From: Octopus vulgaris
Taxonomy: Eukaryota
NCBI GenBank assembly: GCA_951406725.2
Contig: OX597814.1
Location: forward strand, 98,394,001-98,458,000
Reading direction: 5' to 3'
Length of the DNA: 64,000 nt
The number at the start of each line of letters is the position of its first letter. Position 1 is the stretch's first letter. A program made the position numbers and the translations under genes. This document shows positions 1,364-63,748 of this stretch, in pieces. The notes beneath the pieces were generated by a model. It did not search any database. It saw nothing but the letters and a program-made list of their open reading frames with translations, and had not been told where the DNA came from.

Positions 1364-2165
1364 ACAGGGTGCATCAGTTTTCTTTGGGGTCATTTGCATG
1401 AATTTAGAAAAAAGGAACACAACTCATCAAAGAAAAGCTGTATTTGAAACAAATCAGTACAAATAATTTGGAGACTCCAATTCAACGAATCCACAGTTAG
1501 CTTTAATGACTGCTTCAACACGGGGTCAGAAGCGTTGACATGCCCGAATCAGATTATGTCTATCAATTTTGGACACGTGTTGGTTATACAGGACTTGAGA
1601 GATTGTATGGTGTCATAGAGGTGTTGATTGACTTGTCTCTCGACAACGCTCCATATGTAATAGTCTAGTAGGTTGCCTGGTGAGATCAGAAGCTACGTGA
1701 CTGGAAGCATGATCTTGGGCATTGGTACGCGTTCACACTTGGGTTGTCCGAGCCACATGAGACGGCGTAGAGTCTTGTTGGAAGATGTACCATCTTTCGT
1801 TGCATACTCTGTCTATCGACGGCCTCACAACTTTCTCCAGGAGTACTGTGTAGACAGCAGCGTCAACTCTTTAGTCATGTGAAAAAAAAGTTAGGAGGCA
1901 TGATATCTCTCTCGCTTCTGATAACTCAGAGAATCATCACAGTTGTTGGGAACTTAGAATGAGTGACTGTTGGGAACTTATTTGGGTCTCTGCATAACCT
2001 TCTACTGTTTCTGTGGTTTACCTTTTAGTCCTGATCGAAGTTTTCTCATCGGAGAAAAAACAAAGCATTCTAGCAGCTGCGTGTCTTCCTACGAAGCACA
2101 TCTAAGTCGACTGCGCAGATTGCAAATCAGCAGTCGGTGTATCCGACGATTTTAAAATGTGCACA
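1364..2165 (-). mobile_element. Decayed DD37D (maT/mori-type) Tc1-mariner transposon, 3' part
   Basis: Minus-strand motifs FFSDEK, YIFQQDSTPSH, SPGNLLDYYIWSVVER and ACQRF*PRVEAVIKAN; terminal ta|cagggtg at 1362-1370. Confidence 0.8.
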
Positions 2166-2169
2166 ACCT

Positions 2170-4010
2170 ATACTACTGGCCTACAGATGTGATCTGGATT
2201 AAGTTTGTCTGGATTAACCATTGCAGGTACATTCTGGAAATCCAGTCGTTACCTGTCAGATAGTTGAAAAGTCTGAGCATGTTTGTGAGACTTTCGCAAC
2301 CTCTCTCCAATTACTCATTCCCATAAAATCCAGATGTGTATATAAGATGCCATTCCGCCCCACCCCCTGTAGCAGTAAAGAGCAAGTTGTTCTGAGGAAA
2401 TAAATCTCTAGACACCTGAGGAATTCCGGGTGTCACTTCCCGTTGAAGCATAAATAGCTATATGCCCGAAACTATCCACCTTCACCACTGTTCACATCCA
2501 GGACCACCAACTTACTTTCTATGTCCAAGAAGACGGTCCGTATCAATAAATATAGACTCTTTCAAAACAACACATCATCTCCGCCTTTCAGTCCCGGTGA
2601 ACTTGAAAATAAATAGATCTGTTACCCACGGAAAATGGGGATGAAGGCTTGATGATCGGAGGCTCTGGTTTCGCTGTTGGCCAACACAGCTATACTTTGT
2701 GACCTGAAGACGTTGACCAGCAGGTACTGCTTCCAATATGACTCGAGATTACGTGTATTCAGACCATCTATTCTGAGTACGGCCATGACTGAGAAGAGAG
2801 AGGAAAGTGAAAAAGGCTTGTTTACCTTATTCCTATAGAGCGGCTGGTGTTTCGTTTCACTGACTTGCTGTAGGTGTTTCTTCTAGCACATGTTTGCATA
2901 ATATTTTAATAATAATCCCGCTGGTCTCCTACACCATCGGAGTATTTAAGTTTTAGGATGTTATATGTGTATTGTGATACCTGGATTAATTCTATGCGTA
3001 CTAAAATATCCTTGGTTAATGTGCTGGCAGAATCGTTAGCACACCAGGAGAAATGCTTAGCTGTCTTTCGTCCGTCTTCACGTTCTGAGTTCCAATTCCG
3101 CCGAGGTCGACTTTGCCCTCCATCCTTTCGGAATCGATAAAAGAAGTACTAGATGAGCTATGGAGTCTATGTAATCGACTTACCATCTCCCCGAAATTGC
3201 TGGCCTTGTGGCAAAATTTGAAATCAATATTACTTTTGGAGTGTGCCATCTAACTGTTGTGGAAGAAATTAGGTTCTCCCACAACAATAGTATCTGTGAT
3301 AGTGGTGGTGTCGAGGATAGTGGTGTCCATAGGACTGGTATAACTGCTGTTGTGGATGTGCTGGTGCATTGTTGCACAAAGCTATCTCCTACAGTTGTTC
3401 GTATCTGTCAGTTTTACGTGTTGTGTTTTTTTCTGTTTCTTTTTCTTTTCTCACTGTCCCCTTCGCCAGACGACAGATTTGAGTGAACACTAATGGAGAG
3501 GGGCATATTTTAGGGTCATTGCCTTTTTGTTTAATAGTTGTTTTTTTAGGGGGAAGGTATGTCTTCACATACCGATGTTGTTGGTAATGTGGTTGCTCAT
3601 GTGAGTAATTTTTGTTTTGTTGTTGCCGTAGGTGCTGCCTTCAGTCTGGTTGCAGCTAGTGCAGCCACTCGTTGCTTTTGTTGTTGTTTTGGTTGCTGCA
3701 GTTATTTGCCTTGGGGTTACTGCTGTTATTGGAAGTGCTGAAGTTGTGGTGTTGGCAAAAGCCTCCTTTCAGCTGTCATTGTCTCTTGCCGGGGTAGAAA
3801 GCCTTGACCTTGAGGTGATTAATGTTTTTACAATTGTAGCATCCAGGCTTCCTACTATCACATCCAGTTGCTTCCCTTCTGGAATCTCTATTAGGTCGGG
3901 GATTTTGTCTAGTGTCTCAGATTTCGCCTGACTAAAAGACTCCAATCCCATCCAAACCCGATTTTCTTCTTGGAATCTTTTTATTTCTTGCAGCGTGCTA
4001 GTCTTACAAA
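2170..4010 (-). mobile_element. Decayed Tx1-like (L1 group) LINE: ORF1 remnant plus ORF2 APE endonuclease start, interrupted by a SINE
   Basis: From ~2790: MAVLRIDGLNTRNL...SETR and FLDIESKLVVLDV, homologous to ORF2 at 22037. At 3769-4010: WMGLESF..KIPDLIEIPEGKQLDVIV, homologous to ORF1 at 20586. Confidence 0.75.
3020..3230 (+). mobile_element. tRNA-derived SINE, family B (Deu/Nin-type central domain)
   Basis: ctggcagaatcgttagc head, gagttccaattcc B-box-like, gtcgactttgccctccatcctttcgg core; many paralogues in the window. Confidence 0.85.
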
Positions 4011-4469
4011 TATAGCATCTACCAAATAATAAAAACAAACAAACAAACAAAAACGAAAACAAAACAGACAATAAACCCAATGATGCAGTTGTGTGCAATT
4101 AAAACTTGTGCATAGAGAACAAATTAGAACCAAAATTAAACTTTAATGCTTCTGTCATTTCAATAAGGTTTAATAATTACCATCCTGTACTCACATAACT
4201 GTTGTAAGCCTATCTCTGTATTATGAAAGAGATAAAAATGTCACAAAAACAAAATCCTACTCCCGTTACCTCCACAAAGAGAATGACATGACTTTTAATT
4301 CACACGTTCATGTTGCTCATAAGAGCAAATATTTCGTCCAGTTTTAATTCATTTTCTTTTTTTTTTGTCACGATGTTAGTTTCCGTGCCTCAATCATCAC
4401 AACTTGAACAAAATGTTTCCACTAAATATTCATATTCGAATACATTCATATATATATAGTGGATATAGG

Positions 4470-4872
4470 TGCAGGCGTGGTTGTATGGTTGAGAAGCTTG
4501 TTTCCAAACCACGTGGCCTTGGGTTCAGCCCCACTGTGCAGTATATCAAGCAAACGTCTTCTACTGCTGCACTGAGGCGACCAAAGCCTTGTGTGTGGAT
4601 TTGGTAGACGGAAAATGAAAGAAGCCCGTCACACACGCGCGCGCGTATATGTGTGTGTGTGACTTTGTATTTGTTTACCACCACCGCTCGAGAGCGGCAT
4701 TGGCTTGTTTACGTGCCTGTAACCTGGCAGTTTGGCTCAAGGCGCTTATAGAACAAATTACAGGCTAAAAAAAAAACCCTCACAAAATATAAATAGCGGG
4801 ATCAACTTGCTCGATTAAACCCTTCAAGGCATGGTCGCATCCCTATGATTGAAACATGTAAAAGATAAAAGA
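4470..4872 (+). mobile_element. SINE family A (bipartite, internal microsatellite)
   Basis: Matches copies at 9958, 37036 and 48195; gtaaaaga-type tail. Confidence 0.85.
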
Positions 4873-5494
4873 TATTCTAATACCAATCAATTGTAACTCA
4901 TATATACTTGGTTGGTGTTACGTTGGCTAACTTTCTATAAAAGAAAACGTACGAAATAGTAATCTTCCATATTTTATTGTATTAGCATATAGAATATAGT
5001 TATCGAACTTACTGGTGTTCATTAACGACTCGATATTCTAAATTAAATACGAGTGAATTTGTCAAAGAGATAGAGGAGATCCTTAACATCATAACGTTGA
5101 ATCAGAAGTAAATACCATTTGTAAGCGTTCAAAAGTTACCGTCAGCGATCCTCGTTAGTCTGAAGGAAAGCAACAATACCTGTAATCCTTCTAGATTCTT
5201 CTAGACTGACCGGTTTGAAAAATTATAGGTTGGTTAAAGCTGTATTAGTTCATAATTGCAATAATTATCTCTGCTGCTCAATTAAGTTAAAGTAGGAGCT
5301 GATTTAGTCTCATGAAGAAGTGACAGATCACTGTTTAAGTTGTGAATAATTAACCACGTTGCAGGAATACTGATGACCATGTTTATGTTGACGACGATGA
5401 TGATGATGATGGTGTTGATGGTCTCCTGCGGAAATATTTGGTAATTTATAAAGAAAAAAAATCGATGAAATAATGAGTAGAATAGCATCTAGCG

Positions 5495-5727
5495 AATCTT
5501 TAACTGTTTCAGCGGCCATACTGGGGCATCACTTTGAAGGGTTTAATCGAATGAATCGCCCCCAGTACTTATTTTAAGTCTACTACTTATTCTAGCGGTC
5601 TCTTTTACTGAACAGCTTACAGAGACGTAAACAAACCAGCACCAGTTGTCTAATGCTGGTGGACATACACACATGCGACATGCTTCCACAAAGCTTCCGA
5701 AGTCTCGATCTATCAAATCCACTCGAA
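5495..5727 (-). mobile_element. SINE family A, partial
   Basis: Reverse complement of the family A 3' half (cggccatactgg, tacttattct). Confidence 0.7.
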
Positions 5728-5744
5728 AAGATGTGAACTTTTAA

Positions 5745-5972
5745 AAGGAAACAAAAACTGTTCAAATCATAACGTCTAAATGTAACCACTCGACTTCGGA
5801 GGTCAAATGGGTATTGCGCCTCATTGTATCATTTTCATATTTTCATTCGTTCTTTTTATTTTTTCTTCTTCACTCGATTTCTTTCTGTATTTTTACTTCC
5901 CCGACTATGTATCCTGTATTATTTTGTAATGTCCCATCTATGTTTGGCCCCTTGTGGGTAATAGAAAAATCA
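5745..5972 (+). mobile_element. Isolated 3' end of a Tx1-like LINE
   Basis: Ends tgtcccatctatgtttggccccttgtgggtaatagaaaaatc, similar to the LINE terminus at 23808-23850. Confidence 0.55.
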
Positions 5973-6088
5973 GGACATTGGTGCTGCCTTGACGGAGGTT
6001 TGCCCTCTCTGAGTGCTTTTGTTTTATTTTTATTTTATCTTTACTTATTGTATTTTTTATTTTTATAATTTTTTGTGTAGTCTCATCA

Positions 6089-6265
6089 GGGCGACGAGCT
6101 GGTAGAATCATTAGCGCAACGGACAAAAATTCTTAGCGGCATTTCTTCCGGCTCTTTAGTTCAAATTTCTGTAAGGTCAGCTTTGCCTTTCATCCTTTTC
6201 AGGGAGCAATGAAATCGACCTACACTTCTTCACAAATTGCTAGATTTGTGCAAAATTAAAATGAA
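6089..6265 (+). mobile_element. SINE family B, degraded
   Basis: ggcgacgagctggtagaatc head and ctttgcctttcatcctttt core. Confidence 0.75.
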
Positions 6266-7232
6266 TTGTCGTTTTTGGTTGTTTTAATCTCATAAAAAAA
6301 AGATATGGATCCTCGTCGGTTTTAGATATGATTATTTAGTTGCTCGATCGATCTGACCACTAATTTTCAAAATTAGCGTGTAAATGGGAGAGTATTTTTC
6401 AAACACGTGTATCGTTAATGGAATTCTCAGGTTGAATCATCGTGGGACAGTATGTGACAAAGCCATGTTATTACTGGTATGGTTTTTCTCACAGATTCTG
6501 TGTATTCCATTTCTCATACAAAGCCTGGTTCTACTTGATCTTATGATTCAAGACACAAAGATTATTGCTCAAGATCTCATGCTGTGGGTTTGAACCTGAT
6601 GCCTCATGATTGCAAAGCGAGCTTCTTAATTATTCTACCATACTGTATCCACTTGTTCATCGAACAACACAAATGCACTGTATGTCCTTTTATTGACTTA
6701 GTCTCCCAAAAGTATGAATAGCTAAACCGAACCTTGACAGAATTTCAATTCAGTAGAGGGGCGAACGATATACACTGCTTCTATTCAGGCACCTTTATGT
6801 TTTTTGCAGCTCACCACCTAACAAAGTATAAGTCACAATTACAACAAGAACAACAACCGGCATTTTCGTGGCTGGAATAACTTGAAGGGCTAATTGTGAA
6901 TTAACCAGTACCCAAGAGAATTCGGTATGAAGTGACACACAAATACGTTTTATGTTTGTGTTAATTATCGCATCCAACGTATTCGGTATTTGCAAAATAT
7001 ATTATAATGTATTACTGGAAAGGAGCCAAGAAAGAATTAATCGGTGAAACTCAACAAACAATCTCTGTTTTATTTTGATCGTTTGTGCAGTTGGTGAAAT
7101 TGTATGTAGAATGGTGCTTGATTTTATTTTTAACGTCTATTTCTGGTGTACAATTCAGAGCTGCAGTTTTTCTGAAATGTGACAGAAGAGATATGAACGT
7201 TATCTCACAATTTCCACCGGCTGAATTGATTG

Positions 7233-7304
<72 letters not shown>

Positions 7305-7431
7305 GTGTGTGAGAGAAAGAGAGGAGCTACTAAAGAAAGCATTATATTCGTTCAGTACACATTAGCAAACAACCTCTTTTGTCTGATTTCTTCTCCTTCG
7401 TGCGTCATAAACCGTAGTATGCTTTACAAAG

Positions 7432-7515
<84 letters not shown>
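7233..7515. repeat. (TA)n and (CA)n microsatellites
   Basis: Direct reading. Confidence 0.95.
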
Positions 7516-7519
<4 letters not shown>

Positions 7520-8135
7520 TACTCGTATGCGTATTCTTGTATGAATTTACTTAATTATAAGAAAAATACGTACATTTACATACACTAGCACACGAAGAAT
7601 TATACATGCTCTGAAGATTTCAATTCTAACAATTAAACTTTGTCACTTCGTTTGCAGTATACTACTAATCTGTTGTAGGTAAAATACCAAAATAAATATT
7701 GAGATATGTACTATGAGTATATATGTGAGCTGTACAAAGACATCCATATTTAAATAATCATGCACACGCACATATATGCATGCATAATATATACTTAAAG
7801 GAAATAAATACAAAGAATCTGTGCAAAGGATATATGTATATAAGTCTGTTTATGTATGTTTGTGGAAGATTGTAACTGTGATTGTACATTTTAATGCATT
7901 GCATATACTGTAAACTCATATATATCGACAGTTTCTTCGTTTATGATCGCGATGACTATGCATGAATATACATGTATATACTTAAATTCACACACTACAT
8001 CACACAAACACATATACTCAACACATATCTGATGTAATTATTACATAAGCGTACAATCACACACGTATTGTCAAGGTGGTGCTTCGCCATGGCTTCAGTT
8101 AGCTGACAAACAAGTAAAAGAATATAATAATACAA

Positions 8136-8561: not shown

Positions 8562-9850
8562 GTTGTCCGGAAGGTTCGTGCTGATTTATAGTAGCTTACC
8601 TTTAGACTTATTTTAGCACGTGGTTGAATCTATAACATGTGATTTGACTACACCTCCATTTAGAGTAAAGTTTAAGCTATCTTTTCGAGGAAGAAGATTT
8701 ATATTCCTATAACCTGTGTTAATTCTGTAACTCTTTAAAATGGAAGATAAGAAAGTTCATTTTCGGCACTTGATGCTTTTCTTTTTCCGTAAAGGAAAAT
8801 ATGCCTTACCAGCAACCAAAGAAATATGTGCAGTTAACGGTGATGTTTCTTTATCCGAAAGAACTGTATGGAAGTGGTTCGTAAGGTTCCGATCTGGAGA
8901 TTGTAGTCTTATTGTTAAAGCGCGATAAGGCAGACCATCCACTACAGATGATGACCAAATCAAGTCATTAATTGAGAATAACCCACATTGCACAATCCGA
9001 GAATTGACAGAAAGCTTCAACCTATCAAAATCCGTCGTTCATGAGCACCTGGTAAAGCTTGAGTATACAAATCGCTACGATGTTTGGGTACCACATGAGT
9101 TGAGTGAGAAGAACCTTTTGGATCGCATTTCCATCTGTGATTCGCTTTATAAACGGAATGAAAACGCGCCTTTTTTAAAACAAATTGTGACAGGTGATGA
9201 GAAATGGATTATATACCGAAATGTTCAGAGAAAGCAATCCTGGAATAAGCGACATGAGCCACCCTTAGCCACCCCAAAAGCGGGTCTTCACTCTAAAAAT
9301 GTCTTGTTTTGTGTCTAGTGGGATTGGAAAGGAATTCTGTACAATGAGCTTCTCCAAGTAACTAGACAATTAATTCTGAGAAATGCTGCACACAACTGGA
9401 CGAGTTAAAAGCAGCAATTCAAGAGAAACGTCCAGAATTGGCCAACAGGAAGGGTATTGTTTTCCAGCATGATAATGCAAGACCGCACCTTTCTTTAGGA
9501 ACCAGATAAAAATTGTTGCAGCTCAGCTGGGATATGTTACCCCACCCTCCATATTCACCAGATGCTACTCCTTCGGATTTCCACTTATTCAGGTCTCTGC
9601 AGAATAGTCTTAATGGTAAAAAAAATTTCAATTACTTGGATGACATAAAAAGATACCTTGTTGAATTATTTGCCACGAAACCACCTCAATTCTGGGAAGA
9701 GGGGGATTTTCAAGTCAAAGGAAAGATGGAGACGCATTTTGCTACAAAATGGTTCATATTTGGTTGATTAAAAATGTAATGACAAGTATTTATTGATCTT
9801 TTTCTTTCCTTTAAAAATCGGCAAGGCTTTCAACTTTCCGGACAACCTAA
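8558..9850 (+). mobile_element. Full-length mariner (DD34D) element, 1293 bp
   Basis: TIRs ttgggttgtccggaagg / actttccggacaacctaa with flanking TA, inserted in (TA)n. Confidence 0.95.
8740..9770 (+). pseudogene. Mariner transposase pseudogene
   Basis: Motifs WVPHEL, IVTGDEKW, FQHDNARPH, HPPYSPDATPSDFHLF; stops at 8926 and 9316 plus frameshifts. Confidence 0.95.
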
Positions 9851-10841: not shown

Positions 10842-11674
10842 GGTATGAGCGTGCGTAAGTATGTACATATTTGTCACGTTTGTTAGACTGTTTATATATA
10901 TTATGCACAACAGCGTGAAATACAAAAAATTGAAAGAAGTATGTATATTACAAAGACTAGGTGCAAGTGAAAGAAGAATGTATATTACAAAGACTAGGTG
11001 CAAGTGAAAGAAGAATAGAAACATTTCTTTATGCTTTACATTGTGTCTGAATGCTTGTTTACGTGACTGTCACGTTCTTTATCTCTAAGTTGACACGCTT
11101 GCAAAACAGTGGTTTGTTCAACATATGCTTTCAAAAAACATGATTTGCAGATATACCCTGTAACGTAGCAGTTCGACACAAGATTGTTATAGTAAATATC
11201 AAGATTTTAAAATGTAAGTACTGAGGTCGATATGACCAACTAAAACTCTTAAAAACAGTACTCCTGCATTATATTAGGACTGTAAAGCGTAATATAATGC
11301 AAATATATGTGTATGTGTGTGAGAAATTAACATCCATCTGCTGACATTCTGAATAATGATTAGTGATATTTCTACCATATAAATATAACTATAAATTTTG
11401 AAAGAATTTCACTGTCAAAAGTGAGTGGAAATGTAGTCATATATATTAGGAAAGTATAAATAATAGACTCATACATAAACATCAATTCTTTTTGACTTAA
11501 TTCTTTTAAACAGAACGTGGAATCCAAAGCATAGTTTCTCAACCATCAGAAAAATCCTATTCAAATCGCACACGACTGTTACAAAAAGAAGAATGCATTG
11601 GAAACTGCAATCGTAGATATATTATATATAAAAGTATAAAGAATAAAAAGAAAAGATCAAGAGACATTTCTAAG

Positions 11675-12495
11675 GAGCATAAGGTGGAGATTGTCGTGGA
11701 TAGACCTGCCCGGGATGGCGCAAGTTTGCGCCCCCACCCAAGTCTGTCTACGACCCGCGCCAACCTTTTCGCCAGCACCTTGGCCAAAATCTTTAACTCT
11801 GTGTTTAGCAGAGTTATGGGCCTAAAATTACTTGTCTCGTCCCCCTTGCTCGGGTCCTTTCTGATCCGTGTCACCCTTCCCCTCGGCTTGCAGACTTGGG
11901 AATTCTCCCGTTCTGCTGGCAGTTGGCATAAACGCTGGCATGCTGTTATATAATTCATAAGGTAGACCATCGAGACACGGAGACTTCTCCCCGGGGCATT
12001 CGCCCAGCACCTCGATTACTTCCTCTGCTGTGATTGGCCCTTCACAGCACTCAGCTTCCCGTACCGAGAGACGTGGGCCGCCAGACAGAAAGTCCCTATG
12101 GGCCTGACCATGATCCAGCACCCCACTCCTCCCGAACAACTAGGCAAAGTGCTTGTAAAGCGCCTCACACATCTCGTCTCGTCCATCGACCGAACACCCA
12201 TTGTCATCAACCAGAGACCTAATTGTGGAATCATTGCCACGCTGGGTTTCTACCGTACGGGCCCATCCGGCAACATTAATTCCCTCACGGCCCAATGCTC
12301 GAACTTGAACCCGAAATTCTGCACCCCTCATGTTTGGCTTTGAGGTGACGATCCAAGGCCGTTCTCACTGCCAAATTGTGGGATGCAGAGCCTAATCTGA
12401 TCTCCTCCTCTAAGTCCTTAACTAATTGCCCTTCTATTCTGGCCTTATCTAATCTTAGCTGACGGCTAAATCTAATAGACGGATGCAAGCTTCTT
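11675..12495 (-). mobile_element. Tx1-like LINE fragment, pre-RT and N-terminal RT region
   Basis: KSPCLDGLPYELY and NFRPITLLNTELKILAKVLAKRL motifs; frameshifted. Confidence 0.9.
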
Positions 12496-20325: not shown

Positions 20326-21260
20326 CAACACAAACAGTCAAAGTAACTTTGCTTCAGTTTTGAGGCAAAGAAAACGTGTTGTTACATTTACGCCACAACC
20401 GTTAATGGAAACAAAACATCTCTTTATCTAAGGAGAGTGATACAATAAACCTAAACATAACGCATCACAATTTATTAACAAAAAACAAAAAAAAAAAACA
20501 ATCATATATAAGAAAGACAATCAATTTAAAAACGAGAAGACCCGAAAACATAAATCAACAAATAATCGAAAAATGTTTAAGGCCCATGTGGGCACATAAA
20601 AAAATACATAACAAGGGGCAAAATATTTGCCACAGGTTTGATTCAGAAGAGCAAACCAAAGTCTTTCCTACAGAATCATTTCAGTCTGAAGAAATACTAA
20701 TGATCCCAATGTACTTAGGGCGGAGGGTCACAAAAATAAAAATCAAGGATGTGCCTCTTGAAATTGAAGCACAACAGAACTGGATAGGCCAGTCTTTCGA
20801 AATCTTGATACAAGTAAATCAAGATACAATTGAAAATATAGCAGATTTTATAAAACTGCCAGCCGGTACCAATTTACATGTCGCCGTTGAAGGCAGAAAA
20901 TCACGCTGTCACTTCTGTAGAAGTAAAAATCACTTAAAAGTGGGTTGCCCAATATGCAAGGTGCAACAGCAACAAAAACAAGAAGAAGAAGAAGAAGAAG
21001 AAGTACAACAACAACAACAACCACAATAGCAAAAACAACCACAACAAGAAAGCCAAAAACAACTGATACCCACACCGCCATATGCACAGCTAATAAAACA
21101 GCTCCACCAAGAAATGAAAGAGCAACAGCAACCAACAAGCCAGTCCAACCAAAACGACACCCCCATCAGCGTCACAAAGAACAGAAACAACATCATCCCC
21201 ATCACCACCACCACCACCACCACCACACCACCACCACCACCACCCACCACCACCACTACC

Positions 21261-22036: not shown

Positions 22037-23557
22037 ATGCTTAGAATAGGTTGTATAAATGTGCGTGGTTTGGGGTCGCCTTGCATACAAGGCTGCCTGT
22101 TAAATGACATCAAGTCACAGAATTTGCATGTCATAGTCATCAGTAAGACCATACTTCACAACCCGCGGACCCCCCAGTACATGTTCGGCGGACAATTCGA
22201 CATTTATTTTTTTCCGTGTCTGCCGAGAATGAGAAGAGGTGGTACTGCGGAGATTTTCGGAAGAGTCTGGACCCCAAGGTAAGAGCAATATTCCTAGACC
22301 CCGTGGATAGGCTGGTCGTCTTGAGTGTCGATGCAGTAATAGGTGTACTTTTTGACTTATAACAGTTTACGAACCATCCTTAACGGGTCGACCGGATTTC
22401 TTTCGACATCTAGAGGTTTTCCTGGGAACGTCTCGACCTTTACTTTTAGTGGGGGATTGGAACGTTACCTTGGAAACGCATCTAGACTACGTAGGTAGAG
22501 ATAGGAGGGGATGTAAATGCCTCAAAGACCTGCTCAGACGTTTCCAATAGTCTGACAGGTACCGACTGTCCCACCCTACCATTACCAAACTGGAACGCAT
22601 ACTCTTCCGTTTTTTGTGAAAGGGAAGCGTTCTGATGGTTAGGCGATCCATTTGCTGCCAACACCCGCTAAATGGAGGGCTGGGAATGCCGTGGTTGATG
22701 ATGCGCAGACTTGCACTGGGACTGCGACATCTCCGGCGCTTCATAAACGACGTGTAGTCGCCGTTTGTGAGACGCGCTTTCCGCAGCTTGTCTCTTTGGC
22801 CGAACTGCAGTCATGGATCAAATAGAGACCGAGGCTAGGCGAATGGCACTACGAGTGCCGCCTTGCTCTCGAGCAACTCTGCCGTCCGGGACCAAACTTG
22901 TGCGACTTCAAATGCACGAAGGCGTTCTATAGAGGATTAGTTGAGGGGAGGTGCGACGACGTTCTTGGGGAGAGTTTGGGCGTCAACAGGGAACGCCTGA
23001 CCCGCCTCTTCAGGACCACTTTCGGGCTGGAACCTATGGACAATCACCAGAGATCCCTGGCCTGGTAGTGCAATCTGAAAGCATTGCCCGTTTGGAATAA
23101 GCTCTAGAGTCAGGGTTCGAGAAATACCGGACCGACTTGCCCGAGATGTGGCCAGAGCAACGAAACCGTTCTGCACGCACTCGTGCAGTGTCCAACCGCT
23201 TCAGACCCGTGGCCTTATGTCGAACGGCTGCTGTCACGTGTAGGACGAATTAAGTTATCGGCCGAGTCTATCGTGAATATTGCCCCGTCACCTTCCTTTA
23301 ACCGAAAAGTCAAGGCAGTTTTCATTGTACTGGCGACTATGGTAAAAGAATGTGTATGGTGGACACGTGCGAAAGGTTTAGAGACAAACACTTTCCTCTC
23401 TGGCCAATCGCTCATCAACTTTTTCAAGTACCACTTGAATAGAAAGGTGACAATAGAGCGGGAAGTTTTGACTCATGTAAGTTTCAATAAAAAGTGGAAG
23501 AATGTAGCAAGGATGGTATGCGTGAATGACGAAACTACTTTCAGCATGATTCTCTAA
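22037..23557 (+). pseudogene. LINE ORF2 remnant: APE N-terminus plus C-terminal zinc-binding domain
   Basis: MLRIGCINVRGL, LLVGDWN, post-RT HPLNGGLGMP, CPRCGQSNETVLHALVQC; stop at 23555. Confidence 0.85.
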
Positions 23558-46130: not shown

Positions 46131-46407
46131 ACAGCACTTAACTAGTTTTCATAATCATTTAGATCACCTGTGAACTAAACTCCCATATTATATATATATA
46201 TATATATAAACATAGACTATATATATGTATATATATATATATATACATGTATGTATATATATATATATATAAAAATAAATATAAGAGAATGCTCATTCTA
46301 GCACTAGAAAATCCAAAAGGTTTCAACCACAAAAATACATGTTTCCTATGAAAGTCAGTACGATTGTTAGCTCACACGAACAGGGCAAATAAAAAATAAC
46401 AAAAATA

Positions 46408-46502
46408 CAGATTATTTTGGGACAATTGTTTCGCTATTAATGAATTAAATGTAATTTTACTTACAAAAAACCCACTTGTAGCTCCTCAGCCAAAACTATC
46501 TG
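46408..46502 (-). ncRNA. Type I hammerhead ribozyme (antisense copy)
   Basis: Reverse complement of 46679-46773. Confidence 0.85.
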
Positions 46503-46678
46503 GATGAAATCCACTCAATCACACGCCAGATTTTACCATAACGATAAATACACGCGTGGTTCAATTGATTACATCCGACGTTATAATTCAAATGCCCTTA
46601 CCAACAGCGCGCCAAATTGAACCACGCGTGTATTTATCGTTATGGTAAAATCTGGCGTGTGATTGAGTGGATTTCATC

Positions 46679-46773
46679 CAGATAGTTTTGGCTGAGGAGC
46701 TACAAGTGGGTTTTTTGTAAGTAAAATTACATTTAATTCATTAATAGCGAAACAATTGTCCCAAAATAATCTG
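46679..46773 (+). ncRNA. Type I hammerhead ribozyme with extended stem II
   Basis: Stem I cagatagttttgg/ccaaaataatctg; CTGAGGA; gcta...tagc; GAAAC-aatt-GTC; predicted cleavage after 46760. Confidence 0.88.
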
Positions 46774-47213
46774 TATTTTTGTTATTTTTTATTTGCCCTG
46801 TTCGTGTGAGCTAACAATCGTACTGACTTTCATAGGAAACATGTATTTTTGTGGTTGAAACCTTTTGGATTTTCTAGTGCTAGAATGAGCCACATAGTGA
46901 CCATTCTCTTATATTTATTTTTGTATAAAATATTATAATATATTATAAAATATTATAATAATCCAGGTTTCTCGAGGCACTGGGCCACTTGGTGTTGAAT
47001 AGATATGCTATTAAATTAGTATCTAATTCTCTCACCCTTATTAATTAATTATAATTATGCTACATTTATTTCTAAATGTAGTATTTGTTTCCGTGAAAGT
47101 TTGGCGCGCTGTTGGTAAGGGCATTTGAATTATAACGTCGGATGTAATCAATTGAACCACGCGTGTATTTATCGTTATGGTAAAATCTGGCGTGTGATTG
47201 AGTGGATTTCATC

Positions 47214-47308
47214 CAGATAGTTTTGGCTGAGGAGCTACAAGTGGGTTTTTTGTAAGTAAAATTACATTTAATTCATTAATAGCGAAACAATTGTCCCAAA
47301 ATAATCTG
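47214..47308 (+). ncRNA. Type I hammerhead ribozyme (second tandem copy)
   Basis: Identical to 46679-46773; predicted cleavage after 47295. Confidence 0.88.
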
Positions 47309-47579
47309 TATTTTTGTTATTTTTTATTTGCCCTGTTCGTGTGAGCTAACAATCGTACTGACTTTCATAGGAAACATGTATTTTTGTGGTTGAAACCTTT
47401 TGGATTTTCTAGTGCTAGAATGAGCCACATAGTGACCATTCTCTTATATTTATTTTTGTATAAAATATTATAATATATTATAAAATATTATAATAATCCA
47501 GGTTTCTCGAGGCACTGGGCCACTTGGTGTTGAATAGATATGCTATTAAATTAGTATCTAATTCTCTCACCCTTATTAA

Positions 47580-47630
<51 letters not shown>

Positions 47631-48194
47631 GTATGTATATATATATATATATTATGTGAATATATATATATATATATATATATCAAAAGGATGTATTATA
47701 ATACTATTCCACATATACAAAAACAGCCATACTAACAATCCAACATACCCCTTCTCCGTCCTAGATACTACGCTGGGAATATAGTGGGTGTAATTCATCG
47801 CATTAGGTATCATTCATGACTGACTTGATCCTATTACGTAAGCCAACGAAAAAGCATTTATGTTTAATGTTTCAATAACTGATTCCGGATGTGTCAACCA
47901 CCCATAAAGCTGTAAAAGTGATTTAAAAAAAAAGAAGTTGACTAACTAGCGAAAGTTTTTGAAGGAGAGATGCAGATCCCCAATTTATCAATTTTTTGTG
48001 GGTGTATTTTCTTAGCTGTTTTTCTTAGTTGTACTAGGTTTATACCATCGTCTAGATTCCTACAGCTTAACACTTTTACAGCTTTACACTAAACAAGTAC
48101 TCTAGAAGTTATCTAAGATTATACCAGAATCCCCACAAAATTTTTTCTCATATAACTATACAGACCTACATGCACTCATAAAGAATACTATATA

Positions 48195-62027: not shown

Positions 62028-62762
62028 GGGTTTGCGTTGTGCTACATGAATGTATCAAGGGCTGAATATAAAAAGTACAAGGAGAAGAAGTTAGACGAAA
62101 GCAGAGCAAACGGGAAACCAGATGAAAACTTAACGGACGGGAAATTAGACAAAAACACGATACACGGAATATTCGAGTCAATGACACAAAATATCAAAAA
62201 CGTGTCGCGCCAGTTCCCATTGATACTGCTCAATATTGCCGGCGCCAGTGCTTTTTATTATGCTACTGAGAAATGGCTATATGCAACGAAAAAATAACAA
62301 TTATGCATATACCACAGATACAATAGAAAGAGCTTTGCCGCTATCGAACTAGGTTAGTGGGGTTGCGCAAAAAAAGAACTGGAGTAAGTCGCAGAGAACA
62401 CAGCGGGAGCCGAAGTCAGCAATTCTTTGTTGTATTTATATAATGTCTTGTTTGTTTCTGTCTCAGTACTCATTCGCTAGCTTTTTCTCAGTAGTTTAAT
62501 AAAAAGCACAGACGTCAGAAAAATTGAGCAGTATCAATGGTAATTGGCTCGAAACTGCCATGATATTTTGCGTCTATATTTTGCCATAATATCTTGACTG
62601 AAGGAAGCCCAGCTGCAAATATTCTGTATATCGTGTCTTTGTCTAATTTCCCGTCCGTTAAGTTTTCTTCTAGTTTTCCGTTTGCTCTGCTTTCGTCCAA
62701 CTTCTCCGTGATGTATTGTTTCTGATCAACATTTGATACAAACATGTAGCACAACGCATACC
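62028..62762. repeat. Fold-back structure with ~255-285 bp imperfect arms and ~200-bp spacer
   Basis: tgcgttgtgctacatg..gaaaacttaacggacgggaaattagacaaa..ctactgagaaa is mirrored at 62478-62762. Confidence 0.85.
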
Positions 62763-62808: not shown

Positions 62809-62812
<4 letters not shown>

Positions 62813-63247
62813 TGACGTATATTTGCCATTTCAATATGGCTACCCCTAAGGGTGGATGCTACTGTAGTTTTTAGCCCCAGGAGGACACACTCCTCCAGCT
62901 GGCCGTCTATGGCCAGCTGGAGGAGTGTGTCCTCCTGGGGCTAAAAACTACAGTAGCATCCACCCTTAGGGGTAGCCATATTGAAATGGCAAATATACGT
63001 CACGATGTGTTACCGCTACTGTATATAACTCACTTTGATATTTATCATTGTTTGATTTCACTTTTTCAATATCAGCGACAGTGGACGCTGGAAAAAGTAT
63101 AAGTATTTGTGAAGGAAATCTAATTCTCGGCGACAACTATGATTGTCACACGCTGACGAGAGGTCAATACCTCGAAACTCGAGTCCGTGTGTATCATAAG
63201 TTGAAGACGGGAAGGATGACTTCCCTTTGCAAATACTGACAGGACAC
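62809..63247 (+). mobile_element. Family 1 HHR element with a perfect 96-bp 5' inverted arm, in (TA)n
   Basis: 62809-62904 is the exact reverse complement of 62911-63006; forward unit 62905-63247; (TA)n on both sides. Confidence 0.9.
63147..63191 (+). ncRNA. Canonical type I hammerhead ribozyme
   Basis: cacacg-CTGACGA-gaggt-caat-acctc-GAAAC-tcga-GTC-cgtgtg; predicted cleavage after 63185; stem I extends caactatgat/atcataagttg. Confidence 0.92.
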
Positions 63248-63748
63248 ATATATATATATATCGGAATAGTATTCGTTTACTTAATGATTTCATGTATAAC
63301 AGTTACACTGTGACACAGCATTTTCAGTCATTCAAAACGCACAAAAGGTGTGAAATTTAACTTTCCTTTCTTTCTTGGTGTGTCAAAAGTTAAGTTTTTG
63401 TGTGCAACTTAGTCACAGTCCTGCAGTAAAGTCGTCGGCAGCTTTTATGTTTCTTAATGGCTAGACCTGTTCCATTATAATGTCACTGTTGTATATATAT
63501 ATACATATATATAATATTGTGTGTATAAAGAGAGAGAGAGAAAGGGAGAAGGATATGTATTTAGGTACACCTCGTAAAGCTGATTAAATTGACTATACTC
63601 ACCATTGCCCACTAAAATAACAATAGAAATGTAAAAAAAAAAAAACATACACACACAGGTGCTTAAAAAATGCATGCAAGAAAATATAAATATATGTGCA
63701 GCTGTATACATTTAAATTCTTTGCCCGATGACAAGGACAGAAACAGAA

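Follow-up and report, generated by a model that had tools for sequence, protein, structure and literature searches.

The window analysed here is a 64,000-nt stretch of the Octopus vulgaris genome (contig OX597814.1, positions 98,394,001 to 98,458,000), in which a two-armed insertion lies between (TA)n-rich arrays at 46185-46283 and 47585-47683, with a tandem arm of 974 nt and an inverted arm of 346 nt joined head-to-head inside (TA)n. In the numbering used throughout, unit position 1 corresponds to window position 46615, and the predicted ribozyme cut falls after unit position 146. The features of the locus are as follows.

46185..46270, no strand: left (TA)n-rich target microsatellite, read from the sequence
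46271..46616, minus strand: inverted arm (A arm), unit positions 486-535 then 1-308, with its site A end at 46271
46409..46503, minus strand: antisense type I hammerhead, predicted cut after C 46421
46615..46616, no strand: head-to-head junction, a 2-nt overlap (AA) shared by both arms
46615..47588, plus strand: tandem arm (B arm), a full unit (46615-47149) followed by unit positions 1-439, with its site B end at 47588
46678..46772, plus strand: sense hammerhead 1, with stem I, core CTGAGGA at 46692, long stem II, GAAA and a one-pair helix III; predicted cut after C 46760
46761..47295, plus strand: predicted 535-nt cut-to-cut monomer, a candidate circular RNA, 32% G+C
47213..47307, plus strand: sense hammerhead 2, predicted cut after C 47295
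47430..47457 (also 46895-46922), plus strand: site A motif, unit positions 281-308, the putative first priming site, read through in the B arm
47458..47588, plus strand: 131-nt "tail" from site A to site B, its last 44 nt being the site B motif, without subfamily variation
47585..47683, no strand: right (TA)n-rich target microsatellite

At an offset of 535 nt, positions 46615-47053 match 47150-47588 with zero mismatches, and the inverted arm is the reverse complement of 47100-47457 apart from a 12-nt gap between 46290 and 46291, a form private to this locus among the loci compared. The hammerhead cores (CTGAGGA..GAAA..GTC) place C17 at 46760 and 47295 on the plus strand and at 46421 on the minus strand. 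An initial annotation of this DNA had described two sense hammerheads 535 nt apart, copies identical save for a 12-nt gap in the inverted arm, and an array within (TA)n, all of which agree with these alignments; the antisense hammerhead that it placed at 46408-46502 is present, though its span is 46409-46503. It had also seen no similarity to a second hammerhead family in the window (family 1, 62985-63250), and this stands, as 93 of 300 shuffles score equally high. The minimal hammerhead of family 1 is itself flanked by a perfect 96-bp inverted repeat with a 6-nt loop (62809-63006 and 63153-63185), and the sequence at 62065-62260 recurs by eye as an inverted near-duplicate at 62520-62760. Elsewhere in the window, fragments at 8929-9318, 11557-12015, 20406-21029 and 23108-23557 resemble a mariner transposase and LINE ORFs.

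An Rfam scan of the window returned nothing at gathering score, and the hammerheads are therefore identified from their core motif together with folding. Stems I and II form (z -2.76 for 46670-46780, z -0.93 with wider flanks), while helix III has just one pair, C-G, closing a palindromic AAUU loop. Among 203 ribozyme copies, 188 retain the core and stem bases, variation being limited to N7 (three states) and a CCGA variant. Stems I and II are kept in the predicted fold of the circle (pair probability at least 0.96) and in that of the linear monomer, and the predicted fold of the 535-nt monomer brings its two ends together (z -6.5). A transcript reading through the whole locus is predicted to form a duplex of ~345 bp, the inverted arm on a sense copy, in which one of the two sense ribozymes is lost; the monomer could then be released only from transcripts that begin within the array, and the window locus may accordingly be a poor source element despite its intact ribozymes. 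The earlier suggestion that read-through would free an exact 535-nt monomer is borne out for the cut-to-cut distance and is consistent with the predicted meeting of the ends; it is weakened by the predicted burial of one sense ribozyme in a whole-array transcript and by the weak helix III. In published work, an axolotl hammerhead with a weak helix III cleaves well only as a dimer (PMC7229834), and eight of nine Xenopus retrozyme dimers gave no cleavage in vitro (10.64898/2026.07.22.740005).

Across the 2.8-Gb genome, a ribozyme 30-mer has 2,072 exact matches (control 0), and 852 site B ends are followed by TA (control 0), which amounts to at least 852 insertions. Fetched copies are 88-100% identical to the window unit, and the longest arms reach ~11.5 and 13 units. 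Read as a circle, the unit has no stop-free frame longer than 66 codons, in keeping with the absence of an ORF noted initially, and the unit lacks the reverse transcriptase (RT) plus GIY-YIG ORF of an autonomous EN+ Penelope-like element (PLE). At the loci examined, none of the arms runs on into a PLE ORF in sense orientation; the possibility raised earlier, that the unit is the terminal repeat of an autonomous PLE, therefore gives way to a non-autonomous unit. The family is a non-autonomous, dispersed, ORF-less repeat. Its tandem units with a type I hammerhead, lack of coding capacity and dispersed copies with target duplications (at non-TA targets, 12 nt in L018 and 16 nt in L090; at the window locus the duplication is not resolvable in (TA)n) make it likely a non-LTR retrozyme by the features that sequence can test, cleavage and circles being predicted. 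The window copy is a very young retrozyme insertion, its arms being identical and other loci also having 0 differences, as expected from the recent activity first proposed; the class is already known, and the family adds one member to it. A literature search covering few subscription papers and no supplements found no description of the 535-nt family or of fixed two-site ends in retrozymes.

Some loci show additional features. One insertion, with the same junction and flanks, occurs at four places on contig C1 (L231, L233, L234 and L235), carried by a larger repeat or duplication, and the unit numbers of L233 and L235 differ. In L147 (5256-6767), the B arm has many internal deletions and the A arm is intact. 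In L005, L155 and L002, retrozyme ends lie tail-to-tail with PLE 3' ends, with a short run of TA between them, which a common (TA)n target would lead one to expect.

The main result concerns the ends of the copies. Sense 3' ends lie at site A (~308) or site B (439), 131 nt apart and nearly always against (TA)n, and these fixed ends do not coincide with the ribozyme cut; the window copy has A on the left and B on the right. Among 70 two-armed insertions, de-duplicated and with both outer ends in view, 66 are A+B, in one the A end is paired with an eroded B, another three each show a single non-canonical end, and none is A+A or B+B. This count was read by hand and excludes duplicate loci, edge-cut loci (such as L232, L237 and L244), L078 with its N gap, and single-armed copies, while the four loci sharing one insertion and its flanks entered once. 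Many loci were found by B-containing queries, which fix one end and leave the other free; where loci were picked by position alone on contig C1, ten of ten are A+B (p 0.001). The two fixed 3' ends and the A+B rule had been missed in the initial annotation, which did recognise a Penelope-type insertion signature, now seen in the inverted 5'-truncated arm, the tail at one end only and the 66 of 70 A+B insertions.

The autonomous PLEs of the same genome follow a comparable rule, as inverted pairs combine a copy with a tail and a copy without in 5/5 cases for a 717-aa family and in 5/5 for a 775-aa family, so the stretch between A and B appears to be the retrozyme counterpart of the PLE tail. A one-sided tail has been published for autonomous PLEs (PMC8557442). 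In vitro, the PLE tail maps to two reverse-transcription start sites, both internal, with both strands cut and a dimer predicted (PMC11167929). At L100 (1501-2760), a young B arm stands head-to-head, with no spacer, with a 5'-truncated, frameshifted Neptune-like PLE piece that reaches its 3' end, a junction that is also a loose end in run X17. This could be a chimeric co-insertion that names the partner or an insertion beside an old copy; the PLE piece seems to carry a tail, which would break the A+B rule.

The geometry of the arms was examined in 56 clean two-armed insertions. In L1 twin priming, both target strands prime cDNA and an inverted 5' part is left, the arms abutting without overlap and the second site arising by chance. 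Only 1 of the 56 B arms stops near site A, which excludes twin priming of the L1 type. Neither arm can lie within the other in 12 insertions judged clearly, or 21 judged strictly, and simple fold-back copying is excluded for these. Both arms cross a cut site in 34 of the 56, and at least one arm exceeds one unit and runs into another in 35; in L146 and L147 both arms are multi-unit. In unit coordinates, 18 insertions have the 5' ends of their two arms no more than 40 nt apart, where permutation gives 9.4 (p 0.003), a closeness that is not predicted by a circle and may reflect end joining or a shared RNA end.

Further evidence on the template comes from the cut site and from sequence variants. 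Genome-wide, only seven cases have arms breaking at the cut site, compared with 2,072 read-throughs; a cleaved linear monomer is rejected as the usual template, and such monomers must rarely serve as one. Three of the seven have both arms terminating no more than 3 nt from the cut, which hints that cleavage occurs in vivo, but the excess of 5' ends at the cut is weak (7, with 2 and 3 at the two positions used as controls; p 0.07). In L163, 1 nt is missing at the cut; considered as a ligation scar, this loss occurs in only one of its two ribozymes and is therefore not a feature of the template. Across 282 segments from 70 loci, median divergence is 0.34% within loci, 0% between opposite arms and 3.75% between loci. 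At 32 subfamily sites, 36 haplotypes occur among 56 loci, and 30 of 1,725 locus-site cells are mixed (1.7%), where the background is 0.8% and random draw would give 60%. In 7 of 32 multi-unit arrays, a variant is fixed in all units and absent from every other sampled locus; as ~70 of more than 850 loci entered the haplotype test, such "private" variants may exist in unsampled sources. Near-uniformity of haplotype among the units of an insertion, together with read-through of the cut, favours a circular template. Some arrays are mosaic, such as L069 with a 4-unit higher-order pattern and L145 with recurrent variants, which indicates that local duplication shapes arrays too. The L069 array (1668-7833) spans ~11.5 units with its 4-unit haplotype pattern repeated, through local duplication, an assembly effect or a multimeric template.

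Contigs of four runs that were guessed to be RNA, from three studies, cover the whole unit in all 29 bins, and in 3/4 runs they contain the head-to-tail junction; contigs of this kind cannot separate a circle from a tandem. Three A>G changes in them (46766, 46775 and 46860) have no counterpart in 217, 219 and 247 genomic segments, respectively, and their clusters of A>G or T>C were seen at none of the loci compared, a pattern that hints at A-to-I editing of double-stranded transcripts. A search for a promoter of the snRNA type found none, the U1/U2 upstream box (ATCAGT-type) being unmatched in the unit with 30 loci compared. In L249-L278, the ATCAGT box lies ~55-60 nt upstream and is common to U1 and most U2 genes, and the upstream DNA of some U2 copies is unrelated.

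Three young autonomous PLE families with intact frames, encoding proteins of 781, 775 and 717 aa, are candidate partners. The 781-aa and 775-aa proteins have RT and GIY-YIG matches, and the linker of the 781-aa protein fits the Neptune CX2-5CxxC motif. The 717-aa protein has no Pfam match and carries a CxCX5C motif, which one study assigns to the Hydra PLE type (PMC8557442). Tails in autonomous families are 30, ~40 and ~75 nt long, with ~30 and ~75 nt in the 775-aa and 717-aa pair. When the unit was compared with seven PLE 3' regions (the three families and relatives) by blastn and local alignment, only AT-rich matches were found, the best being AT-driven and equalled by 6 of 300 shuffles, uncorrected; short look-alike motifs near the ends were not significant. 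In Xenopus, 24 of 57 retrozyme families are described as having pseudo-LTR (pLTR) homology to a resident PLE (10.64898/2026.07.22.740005). In the 781-aa family (L061-L066), an upstream open frame, 330-380 codons long and without a Pfam match, overlaps the ORF, and the 3' region holds a motif resembling a hammerhead, whose core has T at position 3 and A at position 8. The very young 775-aa family and the equally very young, Hydra-type 717-aa family (L067, L141-L144, L201-L230) have CCGAAGA hammerhead-like cores.

The reading preferred here, with a probability of roughly 0.6, is that this ORF-less hammerhead family, with two fixed ends and mostly in (TA)n, is a retrozyme for which a Penelope-like enzyme acts in trans, with a predicted 535-nt RNA circle as the template. 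Tandem transcripts initiated within an array would self-cleave, probably as ribozyme dimers, and be ligated to circles; circles, ligation and a proposed PLE link are described for retrozymes in earlier work (PMC7229834). A GIY-YIG endonuclease would nick both strands of a TA-rich target, the two 3' ends would prime on a single RNA, one at each of the sites A and B, and each reverse transcriptase would circle the template for 0.1 to 13 turns before the two cDNA ends were joined head-to-head via microhomology. For the window copy, the A-primed run would have been 358 nt and the B-primed run 974 nt. A more specific form is held only tentatively and may well be wrong: an asymmetric Penelope RT dimer would act on one ribozyme-made circle, its subunits starting at A and B on opposite target strands and performing rolling-circle reverse transcription, with the enzyme recruited by structural mimicry in place of pLTR homology. 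If true, a rolling-circle RT dimer would provide one mechanism for the Penelope tail, the inverted arm and the tandem arrays of retrozymes.

The same element and two-site priming could instead operate on an uncleaved linear multimer transcribed from an existing array, with any circles as a by-product. This is unlikely but deserves serious attention, as it accounts equally for read-through of the cut site, and long homogeneous source arrays exist (L146, 14 segments with no substitution). In the only PLE tested in vitro (PAc), ribozyme cleavage is unneeded and uncleaved RNA is the main substrate (PMC11167929), and the close 5' ends in 18 of the 56 insertions look as if both arms had run off one RNA end. 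However, new variants arise in single units, so a linear multimer should often yield mosaic daughters, while only 1.7% of cells are mixed; moreover, without a step that re-expands them, arrays would only shrink. An improbable alternative is a single priming event, with fold-back self-priming, either on the first cDNA or with an antisense template, producing the inverted arm, as proposed for Adineta PLEs (PMC3846280). Fold-back would give the same haplotype in both arms as well as close 5' ends, the window geometry fits it because the B arm contains the A arm, and the contigs of the guessed-RNA runs hint at both strands. Yet the second arm would have to sit inside the first, which at least 12 insertions (21 by the strict measure) contradict unless two templates are invoked, and fold-back alone offers no reason for the second end to lie always at the other fixed site.

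It is very improbable that an autonomous PLE has gone undetected and that the unit is its stump (pseudo-LTR), with tandems produced by later unequal crossover. Vertebrate retrozymes are reported to derive from pLTRs (10.64898/2026.07.22.740005), higher-order duplication has occurred locally in L069, and the close comparison covered three PLE families; ancestry of the unit from a pLTR is possible. Against a stump, an arm longer than one unit continues into another unit in 35 of the 56 insertions and both arms are multi-unit in L146 and L147, while the three PLE proteins, compared with 146 (redundant) loci, gave unlinked fragments only. Least credible of all is an assembly chimera as the source of the fold-back or tandem in the window. 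The locus is spanned by no read or contig (raw DNA runs X21 and X22 placed 3 and 12 reads on the stretch, each run with one small overlap with the unit), and its exact local assembly is therefore backed solely by like architecture at many other loci. Nevertheless, its arms end exactly at the family sites A and B, the private 12-nt gap sets them apart, a like layout with different junctions occurs in 66 loci, and the head-to-tail junction is present in contigs from three of the four independent runs.

In comparison with metazoan non-LTR retrozymes, as described in two reports (PMC7229834; 10.64898/2026.07.22.740005), the family shares dispersed tandem repeats, one type I hammerhead per unit, the lack of an ORF, a low G+C content (32% in the 535-nt unit) and co-occurrence with PLEs, and its one-pair helix III with a palindromic tetraloop resembles that of axolotl HHR_Amex1 (PMC7229834). 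The initial annotation considered the unit longer than typical metazoan retrozymes, which is true of expressed circles of 170-400 nt (PMC7229834) but not of the vertebrate range of 51-972 bp (10.64898/2026.07.22.740005). The family differs in the 46-nt stem II insert of its unit, in having no detectable homology to the pLTRs tested, and in its fixed A/B ends and two-armed insertions, of which no description was found in the accessible portions of those reports. With EN+ Penelope-like insertions as published (PMC8557442, PMC3846280, PMC11167929), it shares partial tandems, a head-to-head inverted arm, a tail at one end, target duplications of ~10 nt and a (TA)n bias as in Neptune, Hydra and Naiad; unlike them, the 535-nt unit has no RT or endonuclease, its arms can span many units, and its tail is 131 nt rather than the published 30-40 nt. 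The proposed priming from both strands and the inverted 5' part also resemble L1 twin priming, whereas the second site of the 535-nt family is fixed. The family is one more member of a known retrozyme class, with useful mechanistic data. The re-entry of retrozymes into the genome (10.64898/2026.07.22.740005) and the formation of tandem and inverted PLE insertions (PMC8557442) are both stated as open in their respective sources. One genome here supplies a 535-nt RNA whose two start sites are mapped, young insertions in the hundreds and three enzymes as candidates, and with them a small substrate for assaying in vitro whether both strands are primed, each at its own site, on a circle. The integration step becomes testable through the strict A+B rule and the haplotype data, and there lies the value of this family.
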